This document shows, one piece after another, positions 13,809 through 46,642 of a stretch of 48,976 bases of DNA. This DNA is from an uncultured Chlorobiota bacterium. Lineage in GTDB: Bacteria > Bacteroidota > Bacteroidia > Bacteroidales > JAADGE01. Location of the stretch: contig CAMZKI010000048.1 in the NCBI GenBank assembly GCA_947311125.1, forward strand, positions 1 to 48,976, written 5' to 3'. The translations under genes and the position numbers were made by a program. Under the pieces are notes generated by a model, which saw only the letters and a list, made by a program, of their open reading frames with translations, did no database searches and was not told the DNA's origin. Each line of letters starts with the position of its first letter. Within the stretch, counting starts at the first letter, position 1.

Positions 13809-14756
13809 TTAAGACTTTATTTCTTGTTTTTTTGTTCGTTTTGCCCACCAAGTGCTTAACAAAAGCCCGGATGCTATATGCCAAATACCCCACATTGCAG
13901 CAATAAATGCAATACCGCCGTACCCGTCAGGGAAAATATGCTTATTAAAAATCAAAACCAAAGCAATACCTGAGTTTTGTATACCTGTTTCTATCGTAAT
14001 GGTTTTTCTGTCCAAAATCGACAAAAAAGAAGCTCTTGCAATAGCATTCCCCGTTCCGAAAGCAATTATATTATGAAAGAAAACAATAGGCAGAAGAAGA
14101 ATAAAATAATTCATAAAATGAGCAAAATTTGCAATTACTGCGCCTGCGATAAAACCAAGAAATGCAACAACTGATACCCACTTCACGGGTTTAAATATTT
14201 TCTCTGTCAGTTTCGGAAATCTTCTTGCAAACCAAAGACCTGCAGTTAAAGGAATACCCATTAAAATTATGATAGTCTGAAATACGTGCTGCCACGGAAT
14301 TTCAATCGGATTTGCCAAAGGCAGCGTATTTATATACAGTTCTCCCCAAAAAACAAAGTTTAACGGTGTCATTATTATTGACAATAAATCAGAAAAAGCC
14401 GTCAGCGTTACGGACAGTGCTGTGTTGCCTTTTGCCAATGATGTCATAAAGTTAGAAACATTACCGCCGGGACAGGAGGCTACCAACAACATTCCCAGAG
14501 AAATTGAAACCGGAAATTTAAGTAAAATAACCAGTAAATAAGTTATAGCCGGAAGCAGCAAAAATTGTGCTATAAGTCCGATAATAACCGATTTCGGATT
14601 TTTTGATATTTGAAGAAAATGTTCTCGTTTTATTCCGAGGGCAACACCAAACATAACAAAAGCTATGGTAATATTCATTGCAGTTAAGCCGGCTTCGTTA
14701 AAGTTAAGCCTTATTGAGTCTAAGGGTAATAGCAGGGAGTTGTATTTTTCAAACAT
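13809..14756 (-). CDS. Bile acid:sodium symporter (BASS/SBF) family transporter
   Basis: 315-aa polytopic protein with a BASS-like pattern (LLVASCPGGNVSNFMT, ETGIQNSGIALVL). Confidence 0.8.
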   Translation of the reverse strand: MFEKYNSLLLPLDSIRLNFNEAGLTAMNITIAFVMFGVALGIKREHFLQISKNPKSVIIGLIAQFLLLPAITYLLVILLKFPVSISLGMLLVASCPGGNVSNFMTSLAKGNTALSVTLTAFSDLLSIIMTPLNFVFWGELYINTLPLANPIEIPWQHVFQTIIILMGIPLTAGLWFARRFPKLTEKIFKPVKWVSVVAFLGFIAGAVIANFAHFMNYFILLLPIVFFHNIIAFGTGNAIARASFLSILDRKTITIETGIQNSGIALVLIFNKHIFPDGYGGIAFIAAMWGIWHIASGLLLSTWWAKRTKKQEIKS

Positions 14757-14795
14757 ATCTTTTAAATAATTGCCTGCTAAAATAACAACTATTTT

Positions 14796-15257
14796 TTATT
14801 TCTCTAATAATTGTAAAATTAAATCGGGTTCAAAGCCTTTCGACGCTGCAAATCTTATCAGCTTTTGTTTTTTCTTATACTTGTCTTCATCTTTTATGCG
14901 GTGCTGCTTTTGTTTTAAGATATATTTAAGTGTTTCTCTGTATTTTTTTTCGGAAATTTGGTCTAATGCTTCCTCAATTAACTTTTCGGGTATTTTTTTT
15001 TGAACAAGCATCGTTCTTATTTTAATCTTTCCCCATTTGTTAAATTCAAATTTATCTCTTACATAATATTTTACATAACGCTCTTCATCTATAAATTTTT
15101 GCTTTTCAAGTTCGTTTATAATTTTATCGTGTTCTGCAGGATTAGCTTTCCAGTCATATAGCTTTTTACTGATATCCGATTTACACTTTTCTGCCTTACT
15201 GCACAGATACATTGCTTTGTTCAGAGCTTTCTGATATGAAATATATTTTTGCTGCAT
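14796..15257 (-). CDS. recX: Regulatory protein RecX
   Basis: 153 aa with three-helix-repeat character (ALNKAMYLCSKAEKCKSDISKKLYDW, FIDEERYVKYYVRDKFEFNKWGKIKI). Confidence 0.8.
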   Translation of the reverse strand: MQQKYISYQKALNKAMYLCSKAEKCKSDISKKLYDWKANPAEHDKIINELEKQKFIDEERYVKYYVRDKFEFNKWGKIKIRTMLVQKKIPEKLIEEALDQISEKKYRETLKYILKQKQHRIKDEDKYKKKQKLIRFAASKGFEPDLILQLLEK

Positions 15258-15259
15258 TT

Positions 15260-17152
15260 TTATTCAACAACGGCATTTTTGCTCATTATCAGATGATTAT
15301 ATTTTTCAGAAGGAGATGAAATAAACTCGCCTATGCCGTATTCTCCCCATTTTTTATCAACAAGCTTTATTGTTTCCTTATCGGAAGTTACAATATCCGG
15401 CCAATCTCTTTTAAAATTGTCAATATCTGCACGTTTTCGAGTTCCGTCGATAACGAGGTGCGATATTTCGTTTTCGGATGAAAAAATATAGCAATCACGC
15501 ATCGGTTCAATATTATTTGCAAAAATCCAGGTTGTTTGTTCAATATCAAAAACATTTACGGGAAAATCAAGAAAAATCAAAAATTTAATCTTTCGAACTC
15601 CCTCTTCTTGAACAAGTTGCTCCGCCAACCGTTTAACATGTTGCTTTTTGTTTTTTTCTATCGAAATAAAAAGAAAAGATATGTCGTCTTTCAGCAATTC
15701 ATCATTAATTTCCTTTATTTCCGGATATTTCTTTTTCAATTGAAGAATATCGATTTCAACTGTTTTCAGATTTATTTTCAGGTTTTCCCTTTCCGATTTT
15801 TCCTCATCGTATTTTTTTGAAGCATCAATGCCGAGTTTGCTGCCGTAAGCAAATTTGCTTGATGAATGGTCGAGAACATCCAAAGGTCCTTTCATAAACA
15901 AAATATCATTTTCGGGATTTACGTTTTCGGAAAATATTTTTGCCGCCTGCTTGTAGTCGGAAATTTGAACATTTTCATCTAAAACAACAAGCATTTTATT
16001 AAACATCATTTGCCCTGCACCCCACAACGAACTCATTACCTTTTGTGCATGCCCCGAAAATGATTTTTTAATGCTTACCAGCGTAAGGTTGTGAGCAACT
16101 CCGGCATCGGGAATATTCATATCTGTCATTTCCGGAAGCATTGTCAGTTTTATGGGAGCCAAAAAAATGCGTTCCGTAGCACGAGCAATATAAGCGTCTT
16201 CCATCGGCGGAATGCCGACCACGGTTGCCGGATAAACGGCATTTTTTTTATGTGTTATACAGGTTACATGAAATTTAGGATACCAATCCGGCAAGGAAAA
16301 AAATCCGGTATGATCGCCGAAAGGTCCTTCCCAAATAAAGTCTTCGGCAGGGTCAATATAGCCCTCAATAATGATGTCAGCTTCCGCCGGAACTTCAATA
16401 TCTTGTGTTATTGCTTTTACCAATTTTACTTTTTCTTTACGAAGAAATCCGGCAAGCATATATTCGTCAATATTATCGGGCAATGGTGCCGTTGCGGCGT
16501 ATGTTAAAACAGGATGCCCGCCGAGAGCAACAGCAATCGGCATTTTTTTTCCGAGTTTTTTATATTCCGAAAAATGCCTTGCTCCTACTTTATGCTTATG
16601 CCAGTGCATTCCGGTAAGGTTTTTACCAAAAATTTGCATACGGTACATCCCGACATTTCGTATTCCGGAAACAGGGTCTTTTGTAATAACTTGCGGAAAT
16701 GTTATAAATTTTCCGCCGTCGCGGCTCCACGTTTTTAATATCGGCAGTATTGATAAATCAGGATTTTTATGTATAATTTCCTGCGATTTTCCGTTTCCGG
16801 AAATTGTTTTAGGCATATATGACGAAATTGAAGCTAATTCCGGCAGCATTTTTAACTTATCGAAAAAACCTTTTTTGGGTGAAGTAATATTTTTAAACAT
16901 TGCCTCTAATTCTTCGCCTATTTCGTTGAAATTATTGACGTTAATGGCAATCTTCATTCTTTTTTCTGAGCCGAGAGCATTTATTAAAACAGGGAAATCG
17001 GTTCCGTTATTTTCAAAAAGTAATGCTTTCCCTCCGTTTTTTGATTTTGACATACGGTCAGCAATTTCGGCAATTTCGAGTTCGGTGTTTACTTTTGTCT
17101 TTATTCGGATAAGTTCGCCTGCTTGTTCGATTTTATTTATAAAGTTTTGCAT
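15260..17152 (-). CDS. UbiD-family (prenyl-FMN-dependent) decarboxylase, probably in menaquinone biosynthesis
   Basis: GGKFITFPQVITKDPVSGIRNVGMYRMQI, HWHKHKVGARHF and GPFGDHTGFF are UbiD hallmarks. It is 630 aa with a long C-terminal region. Confidence 0.88.
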   Translation of the reverse strand: MQNFINKIEQAGELIRIKTKVNTELEIAEIADRMSKSKNGGKALLFENNGTDFPVLINALGSEKRMKIAINVNNFNEIGEELEAMFKNITSPKKGFFDKLKMLPELASISSYMPKTISGNGKSQEIIHKNPDLSILPILKTWSRDGGKFITFPQVITKDPVSGIRNVGMYRMQIFGKNLTGMHWHKHKVGARHFSEYKKLGKKMPIAVALGGHPVLTYAATAPLPDNIDEYMLAGFLRKEKVKLVKAITQDIEVPAEADIIIEGYIDPAEDFIWEGPFGDHTGFFSLPDWYPKFHVTCITHKKNAVYPATVVGIPPMEDAYIARATERIFLAPIKLTMLPEMTDMNIPDAGVAHNLTLVSIKKSFSGHAQKVMSSLWGAGQMMFNKMLVVLDENVQISDYKQAAKIFSENVNPENDILFMKGPLDVLDHSSSKFAYGSKLGIDASKKYDEEKSERENLKINLKTVEIDILQLKKKYPEIKEINDELLKDDISFLFISIEKNKKQHVKRLAEQLVQEEGVRKIKFLIFLDFPVNVFDIEQTTWIFANNIEPMRDCYIFSSENEISHLVIDGTRKRADIDNFKRDWPDIVTSDKETIKLVDKKWGEYGIGEFISSPSEKYNHLIMSKNAVVE

Positions 17153-17172
17153 TGTTTATTATATTCTTTGGT

Positions 17173-18903
17173 TTATTTTGTTTGTGAATAAAATTTTAAC
17201 ATTTTTTCTTCGGTATCGTAAATATAAATCAGATTTTCTTTATTTTTTGTTTTATAAAGAAGGATACCGTCGTGCGGCAGGTATTCATATTTTTTTGCTT
17301 CGTAAGTTTTTCCGGCTTCATTTGTTCTTTTCAGCATATTTCCGAGATACCACCGACCTCCTCTTCTGCCTTTTTTGACCGTTTTTATTTTTATATCTTC
17401 GTTTACGTGAACAGATAAAGTTTCATCATTATCAAAAATTATCAAAATTTGCCGTTCTTTCGTTTTTGTATTTGAGAGTATTACGGCAAAATCTTCTTTT
17501 TCATTGTCATTAAAATCTCCGAAGGCAACAGTATTCATCTCGAAGACTTTCTTTTCTTCCGGAAAAATTTTCCAGTCTGTTTCATTATTTTTGTAATATT
17601 GGTTTTCAACAAAATAATTTCGCAGTGCAAGTTTATATTTGGCAGGTATCAGGTTTCCTGCAATGCTGTTTCCCATTATTGCGTTTATTTGCACAAAAGT
17701 ATGAGAAATTCCCAAGTCTTCGGCATAAACCCATCCTATTTTATTTCTTAAACTTTTAACCTTATACCAAGGCTTTATAATGATTCCGTCTTCCGGTTTT
17801 TTAATTACTCTTACGGTTTCTCCGTAATGAAGGCTTTCTATTTTTTTTGCCGTCAAACTGTCTCCTTCAAGAAGAAAAGCGTTATTATCAATAACTCTTC
17901 GTTCATCTTTTTTTGATAAAAAATACAGTCCGCTTACAATAATTGCCGAAAAAGCAATTGCTGCTATAAGCATAATCAGGTTTTGCCAAAAACTTATGCC
18001 GAGGTTCGGTTTTTTAATTTCAAAATCCGCCGAATCAATAATTTTTGTCTGCAGAGAAATTGTTGCAGCTTTTGTTCGTTTCTTCTGTGAGCTTAATAAA
18101 TCTATACTAAATTCATCGCAAGCCTGATAACGATTAAGGGGTTGAGTCTCAGTAGCCCTCCTTATAACATTACGCATTTTGTCGGAAACACCAATGTAAA
18201 AAGAGTGCGGGTCTGGAAAAGGCTGAGTTACAATTTTGTTATAAATTTCGTACTCGCTTAAATTTTTATCATAAGGATATTGTCCCGTAAGAATATAAAA
18301 AAGCGTTGCCCCGATTGAGTATATATCCGTTCTTCTGTCAAGAATTTTTCCTTTAACCTGTTGCGGGCTCATAAAGATTGCCGTTCCGAGTTTTGATCCT
18401 CCCTGAGTTATGAGTGCCTGGTTTTTTCTCAGATGTTTGGCAATCCCGAAATCTATAAGTTTTATAGTATTATCAGATGTTATCATAATATTTGAGGGCT
18501 TTATGTCCCTGTGTATCATATTTTTAGAATGCATATGTCCGACAGCGTCAAGAACCTGTAAAATAATTTTTACGGCTTTTGACTCAGGAATGGGTCCCGA
18601 AACCAAATCAACGTATTCATCAAGGGTTTGCCCTTTTACATATTCCGTAATAATAAAAATACCTTGGTCGTTTTCAATATAATCATATAAAGTTACAATA
18701 TTCGGGTGATTGAGTTTTGACAAGAGTTTTGCTTCATTTAAAAAGCGTTTTTTATACTGAGGGTTTTTTTGTAAAACCGGATTCAGCATTTTTACGGCAA
18801 CTTTTTTCTTTAAATACTTATGAATGCCGAGATAAACGGTTGACATTCCGCCTTCGTCAATTATTTCGTCTATTTCATAATTATTTACAAATTGACCTAT
18901 CAT
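17173..18903 (-). CDS. Membrane-spanning Hanks-type Ser/Thr protein kinase with an extracytoplasmic SH3b-like / FG-GAP-like region
   Basis: GGMSTVYLG...VAVKM, HRDIKPSNIM, DFGIAK and SPQQ motifs. One TM segment (LIMLIAAIAFSAIIVSGLYFL). The ectodomain contains GETVRVIKK...WYKVKS...GWVYAEDLG and FGDFNDNEKEDFAV. Confidence 0.92.
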   Translation of the reverse strand: MIGQFVNNYEIDEIIDEGGMSTVYLGIHKYLKKKVAVKMLNPVLQKNPQYKKRFLNEAKLLSKLNHPNIVTLYDYIENDQGIFIITEYVKGQTLDEYVDLVSGPIPESKAVKIILQVLDAVGHMHSKNMIHRDIKPSNIMITSDNTIKLIDFGIAKHLRKNQALITQGGSKLGTAIFMSPQQVKGKILDRRTDIYSIGATLFYILTGQYPYDKNLSEYEIYNKIVTQPFPDPHSFYIGVSDKMRNVIRRATETQPLNRYQACDEFSIDLLSSQKKRTKAATISLQTKIIDSADFEIKKPNLGISFWQNLIMLIAAIAFSAIIVSGLYFLSKKDERRVIDNNAFLLEGDSLTAKKIESLHYGETVRVIKKPEDGIIIKPWYKVKSLRNKIGWVYAEDLGISHTFVQINAIMGNSIAGNLIPAKYKLALRNYFVENQYYKNNETDWKIFPEEKKVFEMNTVAFGDFNDNEKEDFAVILSNTKTKERQILIIFDNDETLSVHVNEDIKIKTVKKGRRGGRWYLGNMLKRTNEAGKTYEAKKYEYLPHDGILLYKTKNKENLIYIYDTEEKMLKFYSQTK

Positions 18904-20015
18904 TATTTGTCGTTTACATTTTGCGGAATTATAAATCTTTCACCGGGGTAAAAATAAAACTCCCGCTTGTTATTAACCCTTAAAATATCAATAATATTAT
19001 ATTCATTAACTCCGGGATAAGAAAAAATATTTTTCCCGACAGAATATCTGTATATATTATTTGTATGTTTTTTAAAAATTAAATCAGAAGAATTACTTAT
19101 GATGATATCTGTATTTTTTAAGGGTCTGTCTTTTCGGAAAAAATAGTTATACATAAAAAACGCATTAACAAGCAAAAAGATGATACCCAGCAAAGCAATG
19201 TTTTTAAGTTTTTTCTTTTTATCGTTTTTTTTGAAAGTAAAAGACCTTTTGGATTTTTTACCTGTATTATAAAAACGAATTAAACTTACGGTTACGTTAT
19301 CATTGCCGCCGTTGTTTAATGCTCTTTTTATTAATTGCCTGCCTGCTTTCTTAATGTCTGTTTCTTTTTGTATTATTTTCAGAATATCTTTATCTTCAAG
19401 TTCATTTGTAAGTCCGTCGGAACAAATTAAAATATAATCGTTATCTGCCGGAATCAACGGTTTTTCACAAATGTCGACAGAGACTGTTTCTCTTATTCCG
19501 ACAGCATTGTAAATAATGTTTTTCTGTATATGGTTTCGGGCGTCTGTTTCGGTGATTTTTTTTTCCTTGAGAAGCTTGTTGATTAAAGAGTGGTCTTCTG
19601 TAAGCTGAAATAATTTTTTTCCTGTTTTGTAATAAATTCTGCTGTCTCCGGCGTGTGCATAAAAAACTTTATTATCTCTGATTAAAACCAAAGCAATGGT
19701 TGTTCCGGGATATACGTTTTTTTCAGGTTGCCCGAGTTTTGCCCGAAGTTCCGTATTTGCAAAGTTTACAGCATCGTATATCAGCAACCGTTCGTTATCA
19801 TACCACGTTTCGGATATAAAAGACTCAATTTTTTCCAAAGTTAAAGAGGCTGCTTTTTTTCCGTCAGGAATTCCGCCCATTCCGTCGCAAACGGCAAAAA
19901 CGGCACCGTTAATACTTTCAAAATAAACAAAAGCATCCTGATTTTCGTTTCTTACAAGACCTTTGTCTGTTTTTGAAAATTCCCGGTATATTTTAAGTTG
20001 TTGTGTTTGGCTCAC
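18903..20015 (-). CDS. Membrane-anchored PP2C-family Ser/Thr phosphatase with a short LysM-like ectodomain
   Basis: NQDAF, CDGMGG and GGNDNVTV metal-site motifs. TM segment IALLGIIFLLVNAFFMYNYFF. Apparent GTG start. Its TAA stop overlaps the kinase ATG by 1 nt (TAATG). Confidence 0.9.
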   Translation of the reverse strand: MSQTQQLKIYREFSKTDKGLVRNENQDAFVYFESINGAVFAVCDGMGGIPDGKKAASLTLEKIESFISETWYDNERLLIYDAVNFANTELRAKLGQPEKNVYPGTTIALVLIRDNKVFYAHAGDSRIYYKTGKKLFQLTEDHSLINKLLKEKKITETDARNHIQKNIIYNAVGIRETVSVDICEKPLIPADNDYILICSDGLTNELEDKDILKIIQKETDIKKAGRQLIKRALNNGGNDNVTVSLIRFYNTGKKSKRSFTFKKNDKKKKLKNIALLGIIFLLVNAFFMYNYFFRKDRPLKNTDIIISNSSDLIFKKHTNNIYRYSVGKNIFSYPGVNEYNIIDILRVNNKREFYFYPGERFIIPQNVNDK

Positions 20016-20091
20016 TGTATATTAAACTTGAGGTAAAATTAATGTTTTTTCTCTTAATAGGCAGTAAAATCTTTAAATCAAAACAAATTCT

Positions 20092-20099
20092 TATTTTTG
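20092..20099 (+). promoter_or_regulatory. TAnnTTTG -7 box for the sulfotransferase/FemAB-like/wzx cassette
   Basis: TATTTTTG at 20092-20099. It overlaps the ORF-track start at 20097, which favours the TTG at 20121. Confidence 0.4.
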
Positions 20100-20120
20100 T
20101 GTTTTACACAAAATATTTTT

Positions 20121-20972
20121 TTGACAAAGATTATTTATATAGCCGGCTTAGGTCACTCAGGTTCAACAATTTTGGATATGGCATTGGGCTGCCATCCGGA
20201 AATTGTAGGCTTAGGAGAGATTTATGCTGTTTTTAATAAAAAAAAAACGTCCGAGCTTTTTGAAAAGTCAACTTGTTCTTGCGGTAAAAAAGGTATTGAT
20301 TGTTATTTTTGGAAAGATCTGCAAAAAATTTCAGCTTCAGAGCTTAAAACAGAAGAGAAATACAAAAAACTTATTGAAATCTTTACTGAAAAGTACGGGG
20401 AAAATATGATTTTACTTGACAGCTCAAAAAATTCATATTCATACCTCCGTTTTTTGAATAAAGAATATGACCTGAGAGTAATATATTTAACAAGAGACTA
20501 CAGAAGCTGGATTTATTCCCGCTTCGCACGAACCCGAAAACCGATGCTTTTTCTTGGTTTAAGATGGTATCTTGAAAACCGAAAATTATTATATGTTCTG
20601 AAAAAATACAATTTGAAAATAATGACTGCGGGCTATGAAGAACTTTCCGTATATCCGGAGTTTATTTTAAGAAAAATATCTGATTTTACCGGTATTGATT
20701 TTTCGGATAAAATGTTGTATCCCGATAATACAAAAAGCCATATTATAAACGGAAATATCAGTCGTGTCGATAAAAATAAAAGGAAGGCGTTTTTTTATGA
20801 CGTACGGTGGATGACATCCGGCAGACTTGCACGATTATCAAGCATATTTGCCGTGTTTAACAAATTTAACAGGAGCTTGGTTTTTTCAAATATTTCCGGA
20901 AAGGAAAAAACCGATTTCTATATTTTCGGAAATGAAAGAAAAAAGAGTTTACTGAAAAACCATAATGAATAA
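20121..20972 (+). CDS. Sulfotransferase family protein (P-loop-like PAPS-binding type)
   Basis: MTKIIYIAGLGHSGSTILDMALGCHPE (5'-PSB-like) and IYLTRDYRSWIYS (3'-PB-like). TTG start inferred, with no in-frame ATG near the N-terminus. Confidence 0.75.
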   Translation: MTKIIYIAGLGHSGSTILDMALGCHPEIVGLGEIYAVFNKKKTSELFEKSTCSCGKKGIDCYFWKDLQKISASELKTEEKYKKLIEIFTEKYGENMILLDSSKNSYSYLRFLNKEYDLRVIYLTRDYRSWIYSRFARTRKPMLFLGLRWYLENRKLLYVLKKYNLKIMTAGYEELSVYPEFILRKISDFTGIDFSDKMLYPDNTKSHIINGNISRVDKNKRKAFFYDVRWMTSGRLARLSSIFAVFNKFNRSLVFSNISGKEKTDFYIFGNERKKSLLKNHNE

Positions 20973-21879
20973 AACTTTGCAGATAAGATATATTAAACAC
21001 ACAGAGATTGACAAGCCCCTATGGGACAGCAAAATACACAAAGCTGCAAACGGCAGGATTTATGCTTTTTCCGGCTGGCTGGATATTGTTTCTCCGGAAT
21101 GGTCGGCTTTAGTTACCGATAGTTATGACTTTTTGATGCCTTTGCCCGGAAAAAAAAAGTTCGGAATTAAGTATGTTGCGCAACCGAAATTTACTCAACA
21201 AACAGGTATTTTTTCTTCCCGAAAAATAACGAACAATATTGTTTCGGATTTTTTAAAATCAATACCCGAAAAATATAAATATCAAGTGGTTCATTTAAAT
21301 TCTCAAAATAGAATATCCGGTGAAAATATTGTAAAAAAAACAAACCACTTGCTAAGTTTAAATAATAAATTTTCAAATTTATTCAAGGCTTTTTCTCAAA
21401 ATACAAAGCGAAACATAAGAAAATCGGAAAAACTTAAAAACATAACGGACAAAAACATTTCCGTTGACGAAGCAATTTTTTTGAAAAAAGAAAATAACAT
21501 AAACGCTCTTTCCGAAAAAGATTTAAAAACGTTAAGACGCTTAATTTTATTTGCAAAAGAGCAATTTAATGTTAAAATTTACGGGGTAAGAAATAAAAAC
21601 AAAAAGTTAATTTCCGTTACCGTTTTTGTTTTTTGCGAAAACAGGATTTACTTACCGCTAATAGCGTCTTCACCTGAAGGAAAAAAGAAATTTGCTTCGT
21701 TTCATATTTTTAATACATTTATTGAAGAATACGCCGGTAATGAGTTATTTTTGGATTTTGAGGGTTCTTCCGTTCCCGGAGTTGCTCGTTTTTTTGAAGG
21801 GTGGGGAGCCGTTCCTGAAACTTATTACATTTACAGGCAAAATAATTTGCCGGTGTTTTTTAAAATATTTAAAAAGTAA
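20965..21879 (+). CDS. FemAB-like / GNAT-fold acyl(aminoacyl)transferase family protein
   Basis: 304 aa with the C-terminal LDFEGSSVPGVARFFEGWGA pattern seen in FemAB-related GNAT (Acetyltransf_6-like) proteins of polysaccharide loci. Overlaps the upstream gene by 8 nt. Confidence 0.5.
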   Translation: MNKTLQIRYIKHTEIDKPLWDSKIHKAANGRIYAFSGWLDIVSPEWSALVTDSYDFLMPLPGKKKFGIKYVAQPKFTQQTGIFSSRKITNNIVSDFLKSIPEKYKYQVVHLNSQNRISGENIVKKTNHLLSLNNKFSNLFKAFSQNTKRNIRKSEKLKNITDKNISVDEAIFLKKENNINALSEKDLKTLRRLILFAKEQFNVKIYGVRNKNKKLISVTVFVFCENRIYLPLIASSPEGKKKFASFHIFNTFIEEYAGNELFLDFEGSSVPGVARFFEGWGAVPETYYIYRQNNLPVFFKIFKK

Positions 21880-21899
21880 CGTAACAGCACAAAGCCATT

Positions 21900-23174
21900 T
21901 TGCTAAAAAACATTTTAAATACTGTTTTTGTCCGAGTCTTTAATGCCGGAATGACATTAGGGATTGTTATTTTAAATTCAAATGTAATAGGAGCCGAGGG
22001 TCTCGGAAATATAAGTTTAATCATTCTTGCCGTATCAATATTTATACTGCTGACGGGCTTTGTTTCCGGAGCTTTGGTTTATTTTGTTCCGAGAGAAAAT
22101 GTTTTTCAGCTTTTTATAATTTCATATGCCTGGGCGTTTATAATGTTTTTTGTTTTTTTTATTTTCATAACATTTGTGCCTGTCGTTGATAAAAAATTTA
22201 TTTATCATGTTTCGGCACTGTCTTTAATTTTATCGGGAGCAAATATTAATGAGAAAATCCTTGCGGGAAAAGAAAAAATAACAACCGTAAATTATATTTC
22301 CCTGCTCAAAACAGTTTCAATGATAATTTCATTGCCGATTTTATACTTTCTTTTAAAAGAAAAGACGGTAATATCTTATGTTTTCTCTCTTTATATTTCA
22401 TATTCTGTCGGGTTTTTTCTTACATTGTTCGGTGTTTTGAAGTTTTTGAAAGACAAAAAAATAAACGGCTTCGGGCTTTTGCTGATAAAGGTTTTTAAAT
22501 TAAGCGGCTATAACACTGTTGCCGCAATAGTTCAGAAATTAAATTACCGATTAGGATACTATTTTATTGAATACTTTTTGGGAATAAAGGCTCTCGGTAT
22601 TTTTTCGGCAGGAGTTCAAATAAGCGAAAGCACGCTGATTATCAGCCGAAGTATTTCTTTTGTCCAATATTCCAAAATTTCAAATACAAACAATTTCAGG
22701 CAGTCTGTATCTCTTACTGTTACTCTTGCAAAAATCGTTCTTTTGATATCTTCCGGAATAATGCTTGTTTTTTCAATGCTCCCGTCTTCTTTTTATTCAT
22801 TTGTTTTCGGGCACGATTTTACGGAAATTAATACGGTGATAAAAAGTTTGAGTTTCGGGATTGCGGCATTATCACTTAATTTAATAATAATGCACTTTTT
22901 TTCCGGCACGGGAAACCAAAAGTTTAATATGATGTCAGCTTCTGCGGGATTCGCAATAACAGTTTTCTGCGGATTACTTTTAATTCCGGAGTTCGGAATT
23001 TTCGGAGCCGGTTTTTCAACATCTTTTTCCTATCTGACATCTGCCTTACTTCAAATTTATTTCTTTACAAAACTTACGGGAATCGGGTGGTCGGCATTTA
23101 TAATAAGAAAAAAAGACTTTACAAACGGAATATCTGCCTTAAAAAACTTATTATTATCAAAAAATAAAAAGTGA
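21900..23174 (+). CDS. wzx: Wzx-like oligosaccharide flippase (MOP superfamily)
   Basis: 424 aa with about 12 predicted TM segments and the typical N-terminal NILNTVFVRVFNAGMTLG. Apparent TTG start. Confidence 0.7.
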   Translation: MLKNILNTVFVRVFNAGMTLGIVILNSNVIGAEGLGNISLIILAVSIFILLTGFVSGALVYFVPRENVFQLFIISYAWAFIMFFVFFIFITFVPVVDKKFIYHVSALSLILSGANINEKILAGKEKITTVNYISLLKTVSMIISLPILYFLLKEKTVISYVFSLYISYSVGFFLTLFGVLKFLKDKKINGFGLLLIKVFKLSGYNTVAAIVQKLNYRLGYYFIEYFLGIKALGIFSAGVQISESTLIISRSISFVQYSKISNTNNFRQSVSLTVTLAKIVLLISSGIMLVFSMLPSSFYSFVFGHDFTEINTVIKSLSFGIAALSLNLIIMHFFSGTGNQKFNMMSASAGFAITVFCGLLLIPEFGIFGAGFSTSFSYLTSALLQIYFFTKLTGIGWSAFIIRKKDFTNGISALKNLLLSKNKK

Positions 23175-24491
23175 TTAGACTCTTATAAACATAACAACTC
23201 CGCCGAGTTTTATCATATCTTTTGCCTTAAGCTTATATTTTTTAACTTTCTTTTTGTCTGCAACAACACCGTTTGTGCTTCCCAAGTCTATGATATAAAA
23301 ATCACTGCCTTCTTTATTTATTACAGCATGATTTGCCGATACGGTCATATCCGGAATAACAACATCGTTATCGTCAGCTCTGCCTATTTTTATAATGTGT
23401 TTCTCAAAAAAATATGTCTTGTTAAATCCCTTTCCTTTTATGTTTATTTCAATCGGCTTTACAGCAGGTATATACTTAGCCTCTTGTAATAATTCAGCCT
23501 GCTTTATCTTTTTTTTGTAAGTTATAAGAACAAGTATTAACAATAAAAACAAAACAGAGGAAAAAATTGTTAAAAAAAGCTCCTTTTGTGTCAGAAATAT
23601 TTTACTTGGTTTTTCAACAATAACGTCAACGGTATTTTTGTTAAGATTCAGGGATATTTCGGACCGTTTTGTTTTTGCAGACAAGATCAGTGAGATTTTA
23701 TAAAAATCGGGCTTCATTGTTTTTGAGAAATAGGAAAGGTCTTCTGTGTATCTCCTTAGCTCTTTTAATGCTTCTTTTTCTTTTTTTATTTGAGAATACA
23801 TTCCGCCGGTTTTTCGACATATTTTTATTATTTCCTGTTCTGCATTTGGCTTTATATCTGCCGTTTGTAAAAAATAAACAGGAAAACGGTCGTTGTTTAA
23901 CGCCCCGGAACAAAAATCAAAAGGGAATTCTTTATTTTCGGAAATAATGAAAACTCCTATATTATCAAATTCAGATTTTTTCAAGAACAGATAATCTTTT
24001 ATTTTTTTACTTTCTTCACAGTTTTCTTTTGTTTTGTTTTTCTTGAGTACGGGGAAATAATTTTTCAGAAACCCGGTAAAAAAAGTTTTGTTTTTACTAA
24101 ATTCAGGGCTTATAAAAGAAATAAAACGTTTACCTTTTTTGTTAGTGTTTACAATTCCGATATTAAACTCATCTGTTTTCTTAAGTCGTTCTGTCTCTTT
24201 CAACATTATATTTATTATTCTTTTTGACGCATTAATGTCAATTATAAATAATATTTTTATATCTCGTTTTATTTCCTTAAGAAGAACCGGAGTTATTTTG
24301 AAAGCTTGTTTTTTGCCGTTTTCAAAAACATTAGAGTTAGATATATTAAGATGCTCTTTGCTTTTAACAAAAATATTAACTTTCGGATAATGAGAATCGT
24401 CAATTTTTATAACTCTCACATTATTTTGTGCAAGCAGCCCCGAAAATTCGAAAGCAAACAGAATAAAAAAAACGGTAATTCTTATCTTCAT
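23175..24491 (-). CDS. Single-pass membrane FHA-domain protein with a vWA-like extracytoplasmic domain
   Basis: Signal peptide, an ectodomain with KILFIIDINAS (degenerate MIDAS), a TM segment (LFLTIFSSVLFLLLILVLITY), and a C-terminal FHA domain (IKIGRADDNDVVIPDMTVSANHAVINKEG...YIIDLGSTNGV). Confidence 0.85.
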   Translation of the reverse strand: MKIRITVFFILFAFEFSGLLAQNNVRVIKIDDSHYPKVNIFVKSKEHLNISNSNVFENGKKQAFKITPVLLKEIKRDIKILFIIDINASKRIINIMLKETERLKKTDEFNIGIVNTNKKGKRFISFISPEFSKNKTFFTGFLKNYFPVLKKNKTKENCEESKKIKDYLFLKKSEFDNIGVFIISENKEFPFDFCSGALNNDRFPVYFLQTADIKPNAEQEIIKICRKTGGMYSQIKKEKEALKELRRYTEDLSYFSKTMKPDFYKISLILSAKTKRSEISLNLNKNTVDVIVEKPSKIFLTQKELFLTIFSSVLFLLLILVLITYKKKIKQAELLQEAKYIPAVKPIEINIKGKGFNKTYFFEKHIIKIGRADDNDVVIPDMTVSANHAVINKEGSDFYIIDLGSTNGVVADKKKVKKYKLKAKDMIKLGGVVMFIRV

Positions 24492-24507: not shown

Positions 24508-25163
24508 CAATGCGAATATAAAACTTTATTCTGTGTCTTATATGTTATTAAAGCTTTTTGTCCTATATTTGAAATAATTAAGAAAGCCGATGAAAAATTC
24601 AGAGGTAAATCAACATACGGCGAAATGGCCATGACCATTGTTCGTCCGATATGAAAACGAACATTAAAATTTAAAACATGGGGAAAAGGAACCGATTATT
24701 CCTTGGCTCTTATCACTTATCCCGCAAAAGAAAAAGGATAAACCATTCTGAAACAAAAAAACGAAATGTGGACTTGGAATCCCAAAATTTCACGCCTGAT
24801 AAAAATGCCGTTGTTATTTGGGGAAAATTGATAAAGCGGATAAGCAAAAATGAATACAACCAAATGAAATCGGAATATTATGACGAAGACGAATATCTGA
24901 TAAAAACAGATATTACCTCAGAGGTTAAACTTATGGGAAACAAAAAAATTCCGACACATATTGAGATAATTCCGGCAGACGAACCAAACCATAAAACAAT
25001 TGTTGATATAAATTCAATGGTTTTTGATATTCCGATAAGCGATAATGCCGAATTTGATGTTTTAGCACAAACATTCGGCGGTAAATTAAAAAATTCGGTA
25101 ACGGAAAACACCGAATTCAAGCAAATTACTTTTGCATTTTTACAGTTTAAATACAGTTTCTGA
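24508..25163 (+). pseudogene. Decayed LolA-like outer-membrane lipoprotein-sorting protein (PF17131-like) remnant
   Basis: One frame reads ...EIIKKADEKFRGKSTYGEMAMTIVRPI*KRTLKFKTWGKGTDYSLALITYPAKEKG*TILKQKNEMWTWNPKISRLIKMP, with stops TGA at 24652 and TAA at 24739. Homology resumes in another frame at about 24807 (AVVIWGKLIKRISKNEYNQMKSEYYDEDEYLIKT...IPTHIEIIPADEPNHKT). No start codon or signal peptide remains. Confidence 0.7.
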
Positions 25164-25172
25164 AAATTATTT

Positions 25173-25180
25173 TATATTTG
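25173..25180 (+). promoter_or_regulatory. TAnnTTTG -7 box heading the long glycan operon
   Basis: TATATTTG at 25173-25180, 37 nt upstream of the cysC ATG at 25217. It overlaps the ORF-track start at 25178. Confidence 0.45.
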
Positions 25181-25216
25181 CAGTTCTTTATTAAAAACCT
25201 AAAGCTTTTATTTTTG

Positions 25217-25819
25217 ATGCAAAATGCAGATAACATACATCCGGTCTTTGATCGGATAATAAGCAAGGAGCAGAAAGAACAACTTCTCAAACAAAGAGCA
25301 AAAGTGTTGTGGTTTACCGGATTGTCCGGTTCCGGAAAAACGACTTTGGGAGCTGCTGTCGAAAAAGAACTTTTTAACCGCGGTTTTCTTACGCAAATAT
25401 TAGACGGCGACAATATTCGCTCCGGTATCAATAAAAATCTGAAATTTACGGAAGAAGACAGAGTTGAGAATATTCGCAGAATTGCCGAGGTTACAAAACT
25501 TTTTTTGAACTGCGGAGTAATTACTATAAACTGTTTTATCAGCCCGACTGAAGAATCTCGAGATATTGCCAAAAGTATTATAGGTAAGGAGAATTATATA
25601 GAGGTTTACGTTAATACACCCATCGAAGTCTGCGAAAAACGAGATATAAAAGGCTTATATGCTAAAGCCAGAAACGGGGAAATAAAAAACTTCACGGGAA
25701 TAACATCACCGTTCGAAGCACCGAAAAATCCGGATATTATTATTAATACAGACAAACTGTCTCCGGAAGAATCTACCAAAAAGATTCTTAACTTTCTTTT
25801 GAAAAAAATTACATATTAA
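25217..25819 (+). CDS. cysC: Adenylyl-sulfate (APS) kinase
   Basis: VLWFTGLSGSGKTTLG P-loop, LDGDNIRSG, FISP and KGLYAKARNGEIKNFTGI are APS kinase hallmarks. Start set at the ATG at 25217. Confidence 0.93.
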   Translation: MQNADNIHPVFDRIISKEQKEQLLKQRAKVLWFTGLSGSGKTTLGAAVEKELFNRGFLTQILDGDNIRSGINKNLKFTEEDRVENIRRIAEVTKLFLNCGVITINCFISPTEESRDIAKSIIGKENYIEVYVNTPIEVCEKRDIKGLYAKARNGEIKNFTGITSPFEAPKNPDIIINTDKLSPEESTKKILNFLLKKITY

Positions 25820-45400: not shown

Positions 45401-46642
45401 ATGTTGAAATACAGAGAAAAATATTTATCAAAAATATATAAAAGTATTTCTGAAATGTCCATAACCGTTTTAATAGGTGCTAGGCAGGTAGGAAAAACTT
45501 CATTGCTCGAAAGTGTAAAAACGGATACCGATATTTTAAAATTAGACGGACAATTACCGGATATCAACAATCTGTTTGCCAATGTAAACGAGTTAATATC
45601 ATTTTTAAAAATCAAAATAAACAATGACTTAAACGGCTTACTTATTATTGATGAATTTCAAATGATAAGTAATGTGTCGTCAACATTAAAAATTTTAGTA
45701 GATAAATTTAAGAATTTAAAAATATTATGCAGCGGTAGCAGTAGTTTAGATATAATTCAAAAAGCTGAAGAATCATTATCGGGCAGAATAAGAATGATTT
45801 ATGTTTATTCCTTGTCCTTTTCAGAGAATATTTTATTTTATAAAAATGAATTATTTGAAGAATATAAAAAATACGATATAAATACCGCTACAAATATTAT
45901 TGCCCCCGAAATAAAACAAATATTGAACAAACAACTTATTTTTGGTGCTATGCCGAGAGTTTGTTTAAATGAGCAGGCAGAAACAAAAATGCAAATTCTT
46001 GATGATATTTATAAAACTTATTTATTGAGAGATGTTAAAGCATATATTCAGAATAAGGATTCGGTCGGGTTCAATAAGCTGCTAAGACTATTAGCTTTGC
46101 AAATCGGAAATATGGTTAATGTAAATGAAATTTCAAAAATTACGGGACTTTCTTATAATAAATGCGAAGATTTTATTTACTTACTCGAACAAATGTTTGT
46201 TATTAAATTAATAGAGCCTTATGAAACAAATAAACGGAAAGCGATAAAAAAAATGAGAAAAGTATTTTTTTTAGATTTAGGCATACGAAATATAATTATT
46301 CAAAATTTTAATTCGCCCGATTTAAGAACTGATACAGGTGCATTATTCGAGAATTTTGTTTTTTTAGAGATAATAAAACATTTAGAAAGCTACCACACTA
46401 TAAATTTTTACAGAACACGCGACGGAGCCGAAGTAGATTTTGTGCTTAATGATATGTTAAAAAAGAGTAGTTTTGAGGTCAAATATAAATCATTAGAAAA
46501 AACTGTTTATTACAAAGCTTTAAATAATTTTAATATAGATGAAAAAATAGCTCAATCTTATGTAGTTAATTTACAGCTGAATGCTAAACAAAACAAAATA
46601 CATTATTTACCTGCATACTTAATCGAAAAAATATTTACGTGA
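45401..46642 (+). CDS. AAA+ ATPase of the AAA_14/DUF4143 type
   Basis: VLIGARQVGKTSL Walker A, LLIIDEFQ Walker B, and a C-terminal FENFVFLEI...DGAEVDFV region typical of DUF4143. Confidence 0.8.
   Translation: MLKYREKYLSKIYKSISEMSITVLIGARQVGKTSLLESVKTDTDILKLDGQLPDINNLFANVNELISFLKIKINNDLNGLLIIDEFQMISNVSSTLKILVDKFKNLKILCSGSSSLDIIQKAEESLSGRIRMIYVYSLSFSENILFYKNELFEEYKKYDINTATNIIAPEIKQILNKQLIFGAMPRVCLNEQAETKMQILDDIYKTYLLRDVKAYIQNKDSVGFNKLLRLLALQIGNMVNVNEISKITGLSYNKCEDFIYLLEQMFVIKLIEPYETNKRKAIKKMRKVFFLDLGIRNIIIQNFNSPDLRTDTGALFENFVFLEIIKHLESYHTINFYRTRDGAEVDFVLNDMLKKSSFEVKYKSLEKTVYYKALNNFNIDEKIAQSYVVNLQLNAKQNKIHYLPAYLIEKIFT

Follow-up and report, generated by a model that had tools for sequence, protein, structure and literature searches.

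What holds together a receptor Ser/Thr kinase, a membrane PP2C phosphatase and an FHA-domain protein whose genes lie on either side of a small glycan-modification operon in an uncultured member of the Bacteroidales, and is that operon what they act on? The genes are found in a stretch of 48,976 nt from a metagenome-assembled genome (MAG), positions 1–48,976 of contig CAMZKI010000048.1; this whole stretch was analysed and is hereafter the window. The three signalling genes form what gene order across relatives indicates is a genuine unit, here called the triad. We read the locus, with moderate confidence, as one transmembrane phospho-signalling unit, confined to a group of uncultured Bacteroidales, into which the operon, here called the cassette, was inserted, with envelope biogenesis as the output. 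The locus has the following features.

17173–18903, minus strand: receptor Ser/Thr kinase, 576 aa (Pfam Pkinase and SH3_3)
18046–18048, minus strand: codon of kinase Thr286, in the juxtamembrane segment (translation QTKIID)
18903–20015, minus strand: membrane PP2C phosphatase, 370 aa (Pfam PP2C)
20016–20096, no strand: divergent intergenic region of 81 bp, between the PP2C–kinase operon and the glycan-modification operon
20097–20972, plus strand: sulfotransferase (Sulfotransfer_3), 291 aa, the first of three cassette genes
20965–21879, plus strand: probable Fem-type tandem-GNAT transferase, 304 aa (AlphaFold2 (AF2) and Foldseek)
21900–23174, plus strand: Wzx-like MOP-family flippase, 424 aa (Polysacc_synt, borderline)
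23175–24491, minus strand: FHA–vWA-like membrane protein, 438 aa (Pfam FHA; AF2 and Foldseek)

A preliminary description of the window had already placed these six genes and named their domains, and the positions of the open reading frames (ORFs) and the Pfam matches bear it out, the flippase match being borderline. The stop codon of the PP2C gene and the start codon of the kinase gene overlap by 1 nt (TAATG), the coupling that this description had pointed to, and the FHA gene, which it had put about 3.2 kb upstream of the PP2C gene on the same strand, ends 3.16 kb upstream of the PP2C start. Within the cassette, the Fem-type gene overlaps the sulfotransferase gene by 8 nt; at its far end, the Wzx-like stop abuts the FHA stop in a 0-nt convergent junction. 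The closest record to the window is JALSMF010000050.1, with an FHA protein that is 93% identical.

Gene order of the triad in related genomes

Related loci, numbered L001 onwards, were collected around homologues of the FHA protein and of the kinase, and were annotated by tblastn with the window proteins. Their gene orders are of five kinds.

State A: FHA gene, opposite-strand cassette, PP2C–kinase (window, L004, L001/L005, L006, L007, L009, L010, L002, L015/L129)
State B: cassette, PP2C–kinase, LolA-like/FtsX/ABC operon, FHA gene (L127)
State C: cassette, PP2C–kinase–ubiD–recX; FHA gene on a different contig of that assembly (GCA_021648725.1, which supplies L066 and L130)
State D: PP2C–kinase with a Wzx-like gene only (L128) or without anything (L067, L068)
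State E: compact co-directional FHA–PP2C–kinase operon without glycan genes (L131; kinase 52% identical)

State A represents about nine lineages, in which the FHA protein is 33–93% and the kinase 67–97% identical. Its cassettes have 3–10 genes, usually with orthologues of the sulfotransferase, Fem-like and Wzx genes, and two truncated loci (L011 and L070) are consistent with it. In state B, 8.3 kb separate the kinase gene from the FHA gene downstream of it, and in state C, the FHA gene stands beside a LolA-like/FtsX/ABC operon (L130). In the state E operon, the genes for the FHA protein (457 aa), the PP2C and the kinase abut or overlap; this FHA protein aligns to window residues 10–437, ectodomain included (E = 2e-24), and the PP2C is 36% identical to that of the window.

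We take the triad to be a unit because of the state E operon and because its genes stay within about 10 kb of each other through the rearrangement that separates states A and B. The same operon, and the linkage that survives rearrangements, suggest that the cassette was inserted into or beside the triad and is not the cause of the proximity of its genes. The bracketing layout thus looks like an insertion, derived and limited to this clade. The preliminary description had presented a triad that brackets a cassette: the triad stands, in the L131 operon and in about nine lineages, and the bracketing turns out to be derived and not required. Conservation of the neighbourhood, which had been proposed there as a check, gives the same divided picture, as the layout recurs in about nine lineages and is absent from L131, L066, L128, L127 and GCA_021648725.1.

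The PP2C–kinase pair appears much older and wider than the FHA protein, with more than 117 full-length orthologous clusters against about 21 clusters of the FHA ectodomain family among 1.84 billion representatives, nearly all of them 430–460 aa long. A metagenome scan for the FHA–vWA protein yielded three further full-length relatives, namely L070, L071 and L069 (which duplicates L004), and L072 as a C-terminal fragment; of these, only L071 supplied new flanking context. Unrelated FHA/PP2C/kinase clusters, co-directional and with several FHA genes, a PP2C gene and two or three kinase-domain genes, are present in Flavobacteriales, Prevotellaceae and other Bacteroidota MAGs (L024, L032, L033 and L043), so generic clusters of this sort are not rare in the phylum.

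Domains of the kinase, the phosphatase and the FHA protein

Topology was read from hydropathy, a single transmembrane (TM) segment being one hydropathy peak. It agrees with the earlier statement that all three proteins have cytoplasmic signalling domains, one TM segment and an ectodomain, to which the FHA protein adds a signal peptide; the positive-inside flanks are consistent with cytoplasmic catalytic and FHA domains.

Starting from the N terminus, the kinase has a Hanks domain (aa 9–262), a juxtamembrane linker with T286, one TM segment (approximately aa 301–331), an SH3b domain (aa 342–397) and a periplasmic domain of about 180 aa. Pfam assigns Pkinase (E = 1.2e-54, 185.9 bits) and SH3_3 (E = 5e-8). 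The features of a Hanks-type Ser/Thr kinase (PF00069) are all present: the lysine of VAVK (at 35), HRD (HRDIKPSN, at 131), DFG (at 151) and the activation-loop threonines T166 and T174, which are both invariant in 117 orthologues. The top NCBIfam family is the Stk1/PknB PASTA kinase (PknB_PASTA_kin, NF033483), matched at 281.5 bits over aa 7–281 only; with a full-length cut-off of 450 bits and no PASTA repeats in the protein, the kinase falls outside that family. In the relaxed Pfam scan (E 10), SH3_3 is the only match in the ectodomain, and the C-terminal domain has no match in that scan or in a sequence profile search of the PDB. This domain (residues 398–576; window 17176–17712, minus strand) is a conserved stretch of about 180 residues, with W47, D74, G115, G118–G119 and W121 (numbering of alignment A5) among its invariant positions.

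The juxtamembrane linker carries the motif [K/Q]-T286-[K/R]-I-[I/F/L/V/Y]-[D/E], which reads QTKIID in the window. Thr286 is kept in 115 of the 117 full-length kinase orthologues, and the residue at +3 is hydrophobic in nearly as many (113/117). T286 is a plausible candidate for an autophosphorylation site and for a phosphothreonine (pThr)-x-x-hydrophobic dock for an FHA domain, both the phosphorylation and the binding being suggested by the motif.

The PP2C protein consists of a catalytic domain (aa 15–246), one TM segment (aa 270–288) and a 76-aa ectodomain. Its Pfam PP2C match (E = 7e-15) is above the cut-off, and the metal-binding motifs D27, D44-G45, D200-G201 and D239-N240 are invariant in the orthologue alignment. 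Against NCBIfam Stp1/IreP (NF033484) it scores 226.3 bits, with a cut-off of 230, and the TM segment and ectodomain fall outside the definition of that family. The orthologue from L068 has two LysM domains and passes Pfam LysM at 45.9 bits, and it is the second of them that the window ectodomain aligns with; the window ectodomain has no LysM match of its own, even in Pfam at E 10. On this alignment, we describe it as LysM-like. SH3b on the kinase and the LysM-like module on the PP2C point to cell-wall sensing.

The FHA protein runs from a signal peptide through a β-sandwich (aa 25–70), a vWA-like α/β domain (aa 79–253) and another β-sandwich (aa 259–293) to the TM segment (aa 302–333) and the cytoplasmic FHA domain (aa 348–437). 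Pfam FHA matches at 5.5e-19 and 68.8 bits (aa 367–430). Both the residues and the fold expected of an FHA domain (PF00498) are found: the pThr-binding residues G370-R371, S385/H388 and N407-G408 are invariant across 22 homologues of the protein, and Foldseek gives TM-scores of 0.8–0.9 to GarA, OdhI and FhaA. The domain is predicted to be a phosphothreonine reader. In the NCBIfam ranking FhaB/FipA comes first, above OdhI, GltG and TagH; the protein also matches Pfam Yop-YscD_cpl (1e-13) and NCBIfam GltG (3e-10).

The AF2 model of the FHA protein (pLDDT 78.8) gives the ectodomain a predicted vWA-like, Rossmann-type α/β fold. It aligns with ITIH1 (VIT plus vWA) at a Foldseek E value of 2.4e-10 over 333 columns, and further matches of the ectodomain include the bacterial vWA protein 4fx5 (1.1e-6) and integrin β3; PDB 3oun is also among the structural matches of the model. 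Pfam VWA does not match the ectodomain even at E 10, and the support for a vWA assignment is at the level of structure. The vWA-like ectodomain with a degenerate DINAS motif, as it had first been described, is confirmed by the ITIH1 and 4fx5 matches. DINAS is present at residues 84–88, and its columns are unconserved among the 22 homologues, which leaves the family without a metal ion-dependent adhesion site (MIDAS). We reject metal binding of the MIDAS type by this ectodomain, the motif (D-x-S-x-S...T...D) being absent from the family conservation.

In the same genomes (L001–L010), the FHA protein is 41–47% identical, compared with 81–84% for the kinase and 70–76% for the sulfotransferase, and its divergence is concentrated in the ectodomain (window 23592–24425, minus strand). 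A domain that faces the periplasm or the surface might be under diversifying pressure, which could account for this fast divergence.

The kinase, the PP2C and the FHA domain all look catalytically or binding competent from their conserved residues. From these parts we infer ligands, phosphorylation, clients and a possible post-translational gating of glycan synthesis as follows. The SH3b and C-terminal domains of the kinase would sense an envelope-derived periplasmic ligand, a peptidoglycan or glycan fragment being the likeliest, and the LysM-like ectodomain of the PP2C probably contributes to the reading of this signal. The kinase would then autophosphorylate on its activation-loop threonines and on T286, and the FHA domain would dock on pThr-x-x-Ile at T286 or on a phosphorylated substrate. 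Docking would couple the phospho-state to the periplasmic vWA-like module, as an output or a scaffold. Resetting the switch would fall to the membrane PP2C, whose catalytic motifs are intact and whose gene is translationally coupled to that of the kinase. Envelope biogenesis would be the process on which the switch acts.

The glycan cassette and the flanking genes

Is the cassette the client of this switch? The first of its products, the sulfotransferase, matches Pfam Sulfotransfer_3 (5.3e-9, 37.1 bits) and has orthologues 55–86% identical at the same position in L001, L002, L004–L006, L009–L011 and L127. The 304-aa ORF has no Pfam (even at E 10), NCBIfam or PDB sequence-profile match. The family was modelled with AF2 using database homologues, and the resulting model (pLDDT 94.5) has the tandem GNAT fold that characterizes Fem-type transferases, with Sbb17, FemX, FemA and MprF as the top Foldseek matches (TM-score 0.65–0.71, E 1e-10 to 1e-7), in line with the FemAB/GNAT-like label of the preliminary description. 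PF13480 is present in several homologues, and JGI lists one homologue as a lipid II:glycine glycyltransferase. The protein is probably a Fem-type transferase and probably depends on aminoacyl-tRNA; its orthologues across loci are 31–84% identical. The third product reaches 27.4 bits (2.8e-6) against Pfam Polysacc_synt (PF01943), just under the cut-off of 28.2, and shows at least 7 hydropathy peaks in its 424 aa. Orthologues that are 46–96% identical were found by tblastn in related loci; in L066, L127 and L128, the genes in the corresponding place carry PF01943/PF13440, and tblastn gave no link between them and the window Wzx.

A relative of the Fem-like enzyme that is 37% identical is encoded in Draconibacterium (L065, 10001–10918), in the order DUF7033, Fem-like, polysaccharide deacetylase, GNAT, with no kinase gene nearby. 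The enzyme family is therefore not generally tied to the triad, and this context hints at a kinase-independent pathway of aminoacylation and deacetylation for a glycan or the cell wall.

Orthologues of all three cassette genes recur from locus to locus, so the cassette is more than random island content. The divergent junction of sulfotransferase and PP2C genes recurs in L001, L002, L004–L006, L009 and L127; a Sulfotransfer_1-type gene forms the junction with PP2C in L066, and in L128 a Wzx-like gene is next to the PP2C gene though the rest of the cassette is gone. The junction, with a sulfotransferase or Wzx gene, thus outlasts linkage to the FHA gene (L066, L127 and L128). In L002, a Fem-like gene comes 11 nt after the FHA gene, ahead of a GT4 gene and an ORF of 216 aa, all on one strand. 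The orthologous cassette, the lasting PP2C junction and the gene order in L002 make a functional tie to glycan modification plausible in this clade. We therefore put the adjacent cassette forward, tentatively, as a candidate client of the triad in this clade; it cannot be the triad's only or original client.

Several observations weigh against a single three-gene unit with this output. Some concern gene order. FHA homologues in L003, L071 and L012–L014 have no PP2C–kinase pair within 10 kb; of these, L003 and L071 have a Fem-like gene near the FHA gene (adjacent in L071; about 5 kb away, within a cassette, in L003), and L012–L014 have neither. The triad occurs without any glycan gene in L131, the cassette lies beside PP2C–kinase without an FHA gene in L066 and L128, and in GCA_021648725.1 the FHA gene is on a separate contig of the same assembly. 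The cluster counts imply that most kinases of the family work without this FHA protein. The genomes with the bracketing layout are fairly close (kinase 67–97% identical), and part of the synteny may be plain inheritance. Others concern the proteins themselves: T286 is conserved in the wide set of kinase orthologues, beyond the loci linked to FHA, so its motif cannot be specific to this FHA partner; the LysM label of the window PP2C comes through an orthologue alignment and not from a direct match; and neither an initiating transferase nor a polymerase is encoded in the three-gene cassette.

Some of these points suit the chief competing account, in which the cassette is a passenger. The triad would then be a general sensor of cell-wall growth and division, like PknB/Stp/FhaA–FhaB, with clients elsewhere (for example, peptidoglycan synthesis), and the cassette a variable glycan island in a permissive FHA–PP2C gap, as O-antigen and capsule islands are found between unrelated flanks. 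We regard this as a serious possibility, though not a probable one. The compact FHA–PP2C–kinase operon of L131, with no glycan gene, speaks for it, and so does a cassette content that varies from 1 to 10 genes, with Wzx alone in L128, AsnB/GT4/Wzx in L129 and AMP-binding, carrier protein and methyltransferase genes in L002. The most constant companions of PP2C–kinase are ubiD and recX, SH3b and LysM are peptidoglycan-binding modules, and genes for a class A penicillin-binding protein (PBP) and GldB lie near more distant orthologues. A passenger would not be expected, however, to keep all three genes orthologous across loci at the identities given above, or to leave a MOP flippase or sulfotransferase gene divergently adjoining the PP2C gene over kinase identities of 67–97%; nor does it fit the FHA gene of L002, apparently co-transcribed with Fem-like and glycosyltransferase genes.

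Beyond the triad and cassette, the window holds the following features.

13809–17152, minus strand: genes for a ubiD-family decarboxylase, recX and an SBF-family transporter (Pfam), directly downstream of the kinase gene
24529–25046, plus strand: LolA-like (TP_0789-like) gene in disrupted form, transcribed away from the FHA gene (tblastn; Pfam LolA_like)
25178–25819, plus strand: APS kinase, first gene of a large glycan locus (Pfam APS_kinase, 4.8e-62)
45401–46642, plus strand: AAA_14/DUF4143 ATPase amid glycosyltransferase genes (PADLOC PDC-S01, 298 bits)

From the kinase gene through ubiD and recX to the SBF gene, the gaps are 20, 2 and 39 nt, all on the same strand, and the three genes are probably co-transcribed with PP2C–kinase. 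The order PP2C–kinase–UbiD–RecX is also found in L001, L004, L009, L066, L067 and L128, and L129 has PP2C–kinase–UbiD up to the end of its contig; the order is kept even where the kinase is only 57% identical (L067). Here, a Ser/Thr signalling pair is apparently co-transcribed with a homologue of a prenyl-quinone decarboxylase and with recX (window 13809–20015, minus strand).

On the other side, tblastn recovers the LolA-like gene as two overlapping pieces (24529–24810 and 24735–25046), Pfam LolA_like covers only profile positions 84–175, and the called ORF is a 161-aa fragment; in L004, the 93% relative, the gene is intact. The FtsX and ABC genes are absent beside it, and an APS-kinase/Wzm/Wzt locus begins instead. 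The window gene is what is left of the LolA-like/FtsX/ABC operon found next to the FHA gene in most relatives. This operon adjoins the FHA gene in L002, L003, L127 and L130; in L006–L010, a LolA-like gene is next to the FHA gene by tblastn only, together with an ABC ATPase in L008 and L009. In L001, L005 and L071, orthologues of the APS kinase adjoin the FHA gene.

These neighbours raise a further alternative, which we consider improbable: that the FHA–vWA-like protein regulates or scaffolds a LolA-like/FtsX (MacB-type)/ABC exporter and that its proximity to the glycan cassette is incidental. Wherever PP2C–kinase sits, the FHA gene of L002, L003, L127 and L130 is flanked by the exporter operon, which in some cases includes a TetR or ECF-sigma gene; with the LolA-like genes of L006–L010 and the remnant in the window, this operon is the most constant neighbour of the FHA gene. 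In the window, though, the exporter operon is destroyed and the FHA gene is intact with all its invariant residues, and in L131, L001/L005 and L071 no such operon stands beside it. An FHA domain would also still need a Ser/Thr kinase, so that the triad is not excluded by an exporter role.

The rest of the window is filled by a 24-kb single-strand glycan locus (25178–48859, plus strand), with genes for APS kinase, Wzm, Wzt, three more sulfotransferases, three hexapeptide acyltransferases, FdtA, DegT, GT2, GT4, two UDP-GlcNAc 2-epimerases and an FkbM methyltransferase. APS kinase supplies 3′-phosphoadenosine-5′-phosphosulfate (PAPS) for sulfotransferases. No CysDN (ATP sulfurylase) is in view in this locus, and Pfam and reading of the window revealed no bacterial tyrosine kinase (BY-kinase), Wza or obvious Wzy. 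From its gene content, the locus predicts a heavily sulfated, ABC-exported polysaccharide, which leaves the Wzx of the small cassette without an obvious polymer of its own.

Relation to known kinase, phosphatase and FHA systems

Among worked-out systems, the nearest parallel is that of mycobacteria, with fhaA, fhaB, pstP, rodA, pbpA, pknA and pknB in a single operon; there, FhaA binds MviN, a lipid II flippase, in its PknB-phosphorylated form (PMC11898655). This actinobacterial cluster shares with the window an FHA protein, a single-pass PP2C with an ectodomain and a single-pass Hanks kinase with envelope-glycan genes between them. Its FHA domain reads kinase-made pThr on a MOP-family flippase, and its FhaB/FipA is the top NCBIfam match of the window FHA domain. 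Unlike it, the window belongs to another phylum with a Gram-negative envelope, its sulfotransferase, Fem-like and Wzx genes are on the opposite strand, as opposed to same-strand rodA and pbpA, and its kinase ectodomain is SH3b plus an unmatched domain, as opposed to PASTA. A periplasmic VIT/vWA-like domain is found on the window FHA protein only, not on FhaA or FhaB, and the window Wzx has no pseudokinase domain. There is no SEDS or PBP gene in the window locus, nor in the L131 operon. The triad resembles the actinobacterial cluster in its proposed working and is not a member of it.

The Firmicute pairs PrkC–PrpC, StkP–PhpP, Stk1–Stp1 and IreK–IreP are alike in that the phosphatase gene precedes the kinase gene with overlapping stop and start codons, that they provide the top NCBIfam families of the window kinase (281 bits) and PP2C (226.3), and that they have cell-wall-binding ectodomains. 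The window kinase differs in lacking PASTA repeats, and the pair has a dedicated FHA partner; its PP2C is membrane-anchored and LysM-like, whereas the phosphatases of the Firmicute pairs are known as soluble proteins. In Staphylococcus aureus, lipid II is sensed by PknB, which also holds capsule synthesis back (PMC6441080).

A more specific version of the phospho-signalling unit can be built on these likenesses, and we hold it to be unlikely as it stands. The locus would be the Bacteroidales counterpart of the PASTA-kinase system, in which the SH3b kinase and the LysM PP2C read peptidoglycan signals and the FHA–vWA adaptor gates the glycan of the cassette. The adaptor would relay the cytoplasmic phospho-state back over the inner membrane, and the gated step would be the flipping or decoration of a sulfated, aminoacylated, lipid-linked glycan.

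The operon DRA0331–DRA0334 of Deinococcus radiodurans encodes vWA, Ser/Thr kinase, FHA and PP2C proteins, with an FHA-mediated push-pull on kinase phosphorylation and a link to DNA-damage signalling (bioRxiv 10.64898/2026.01.23.701218). The same four domain types thus occur in one neighbourhood, but vWA and FHA are separate proteins there, and no single-pass ectodomain layout or glycan genes are described. Scaffold proteins of trans-envelope machines, namely YscD/PrgH (type III secretion), GltG (Myxococcus gliding) and TagH (type VI secretion), likewise join a periplasmic domain through one TM segment to an FHA domain in the cytoplasm. Compared with these, the window protein is reversed, with an N-terminal ectodomain behind a signal peptide and a C-terminal FHA domain; its ectodomain is VIT/vWA-like and has no ring-building motifs, and no secretion or motility genes are adjacent.

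The preliminary description had instead taken the PpkA–PppA–Fha1 switch of type VI secretion systems (T6SS) as its model. That switch, of the Pseudomonas aeruginosa H1-T6SS, joins kinase/PP2C/FHA logic to a periplasmic vWA-type domain, as the window does. We find it very improbable that the locus is such a pathway, of the PpkA–PppA–Fha1/TagH type, with its T6SS genes off the contig. The same three domain classes, the vWA-like periplasmic domain and a weak TagH match (TIGR03354, 38.8 bits) would suit it. The cut-off for TagH is 120 bits, though, and TagH ranks under FhaB/FipA, OdhI and GltG; across NCBIfam, Stk1/PknB, Stp1/IreP and FhaB/FipA are the better guides, and the T6SS model is not the closest one. 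The vWA-like fold is on the FHA protein and not on the kinase, it has no MIDAS, the PP2C is membrane-bound, and the kinase lies in a conserved housekeeping context (ubiD–recX). A scan of nearly all window ORFs (those of at least 120 aa) and of the gene tables of ten relatives found no T6SS gene in the window ORFs or within 10 kb of the triad in the relatives, as the preliminary description had noted for its own view. With no T6SS genes and a weak TagH score, this reading is rejected.

We find it scarcely credible that the locus is a kinase module for defence against phages, of the type of PD-T4-6 or MADS mad6, and likewise reject this reading. The PADLOC matches that suggest it (PD-T4-6 and mad6, about 260–275 bits, with NCBIfam MAD6 and PglW lower) are generic to the Hanks domain and do not exceed the PknB score (281 bits), PADLOC matches the PP2C weakly and the FHA protein not at all, and the kinase is vertically inherited and positionally conserved in a ubiD–recX operon, with at least 117 clusters, unlike a defence island.

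Systems of this kind, in which envelope biogenesis is acted on by a Hanks kinase with a PP2C and an FHA reader, are known. New are the phylum, the ectodomain set (SH3b plus an unmatched domain, LysM-like, VIT/vWA-like), the FHA–TM–vWA-like architecture and the association with a sulfotransferase/Fem-like/Wzx operon. The arrangement had been thought undescribed in Bacteroidota, and our literature searches found no described kinase/PP2C/FHA system of that phylum and no study there of a receptor Ser/Thr kinase that monitors the cell wall. Such kinases are well studied in Firmicutes and Actinobacteria. The Bacteroidales family of SH3b kinases and LysM PP2C phosphatases, with at least 117 clusters, may fill this cell-wall-sensing role in a Gram-negative phylum, and the conserved Q-T-K-I-I-D offers a directly testable candidate docking site. 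The FHA–TM–vWA-like layout, rare at about 21 clusters, could carry a phospho-signal from the cytoplasm to the periplasm. Other capsule systems are regulated through BY-kinases and UpxY/UpxZ; if the adjacent operon is the client, the locus would be an example of a different principle, the Ser/Thr phospho-control of a sulfated surface glycan.

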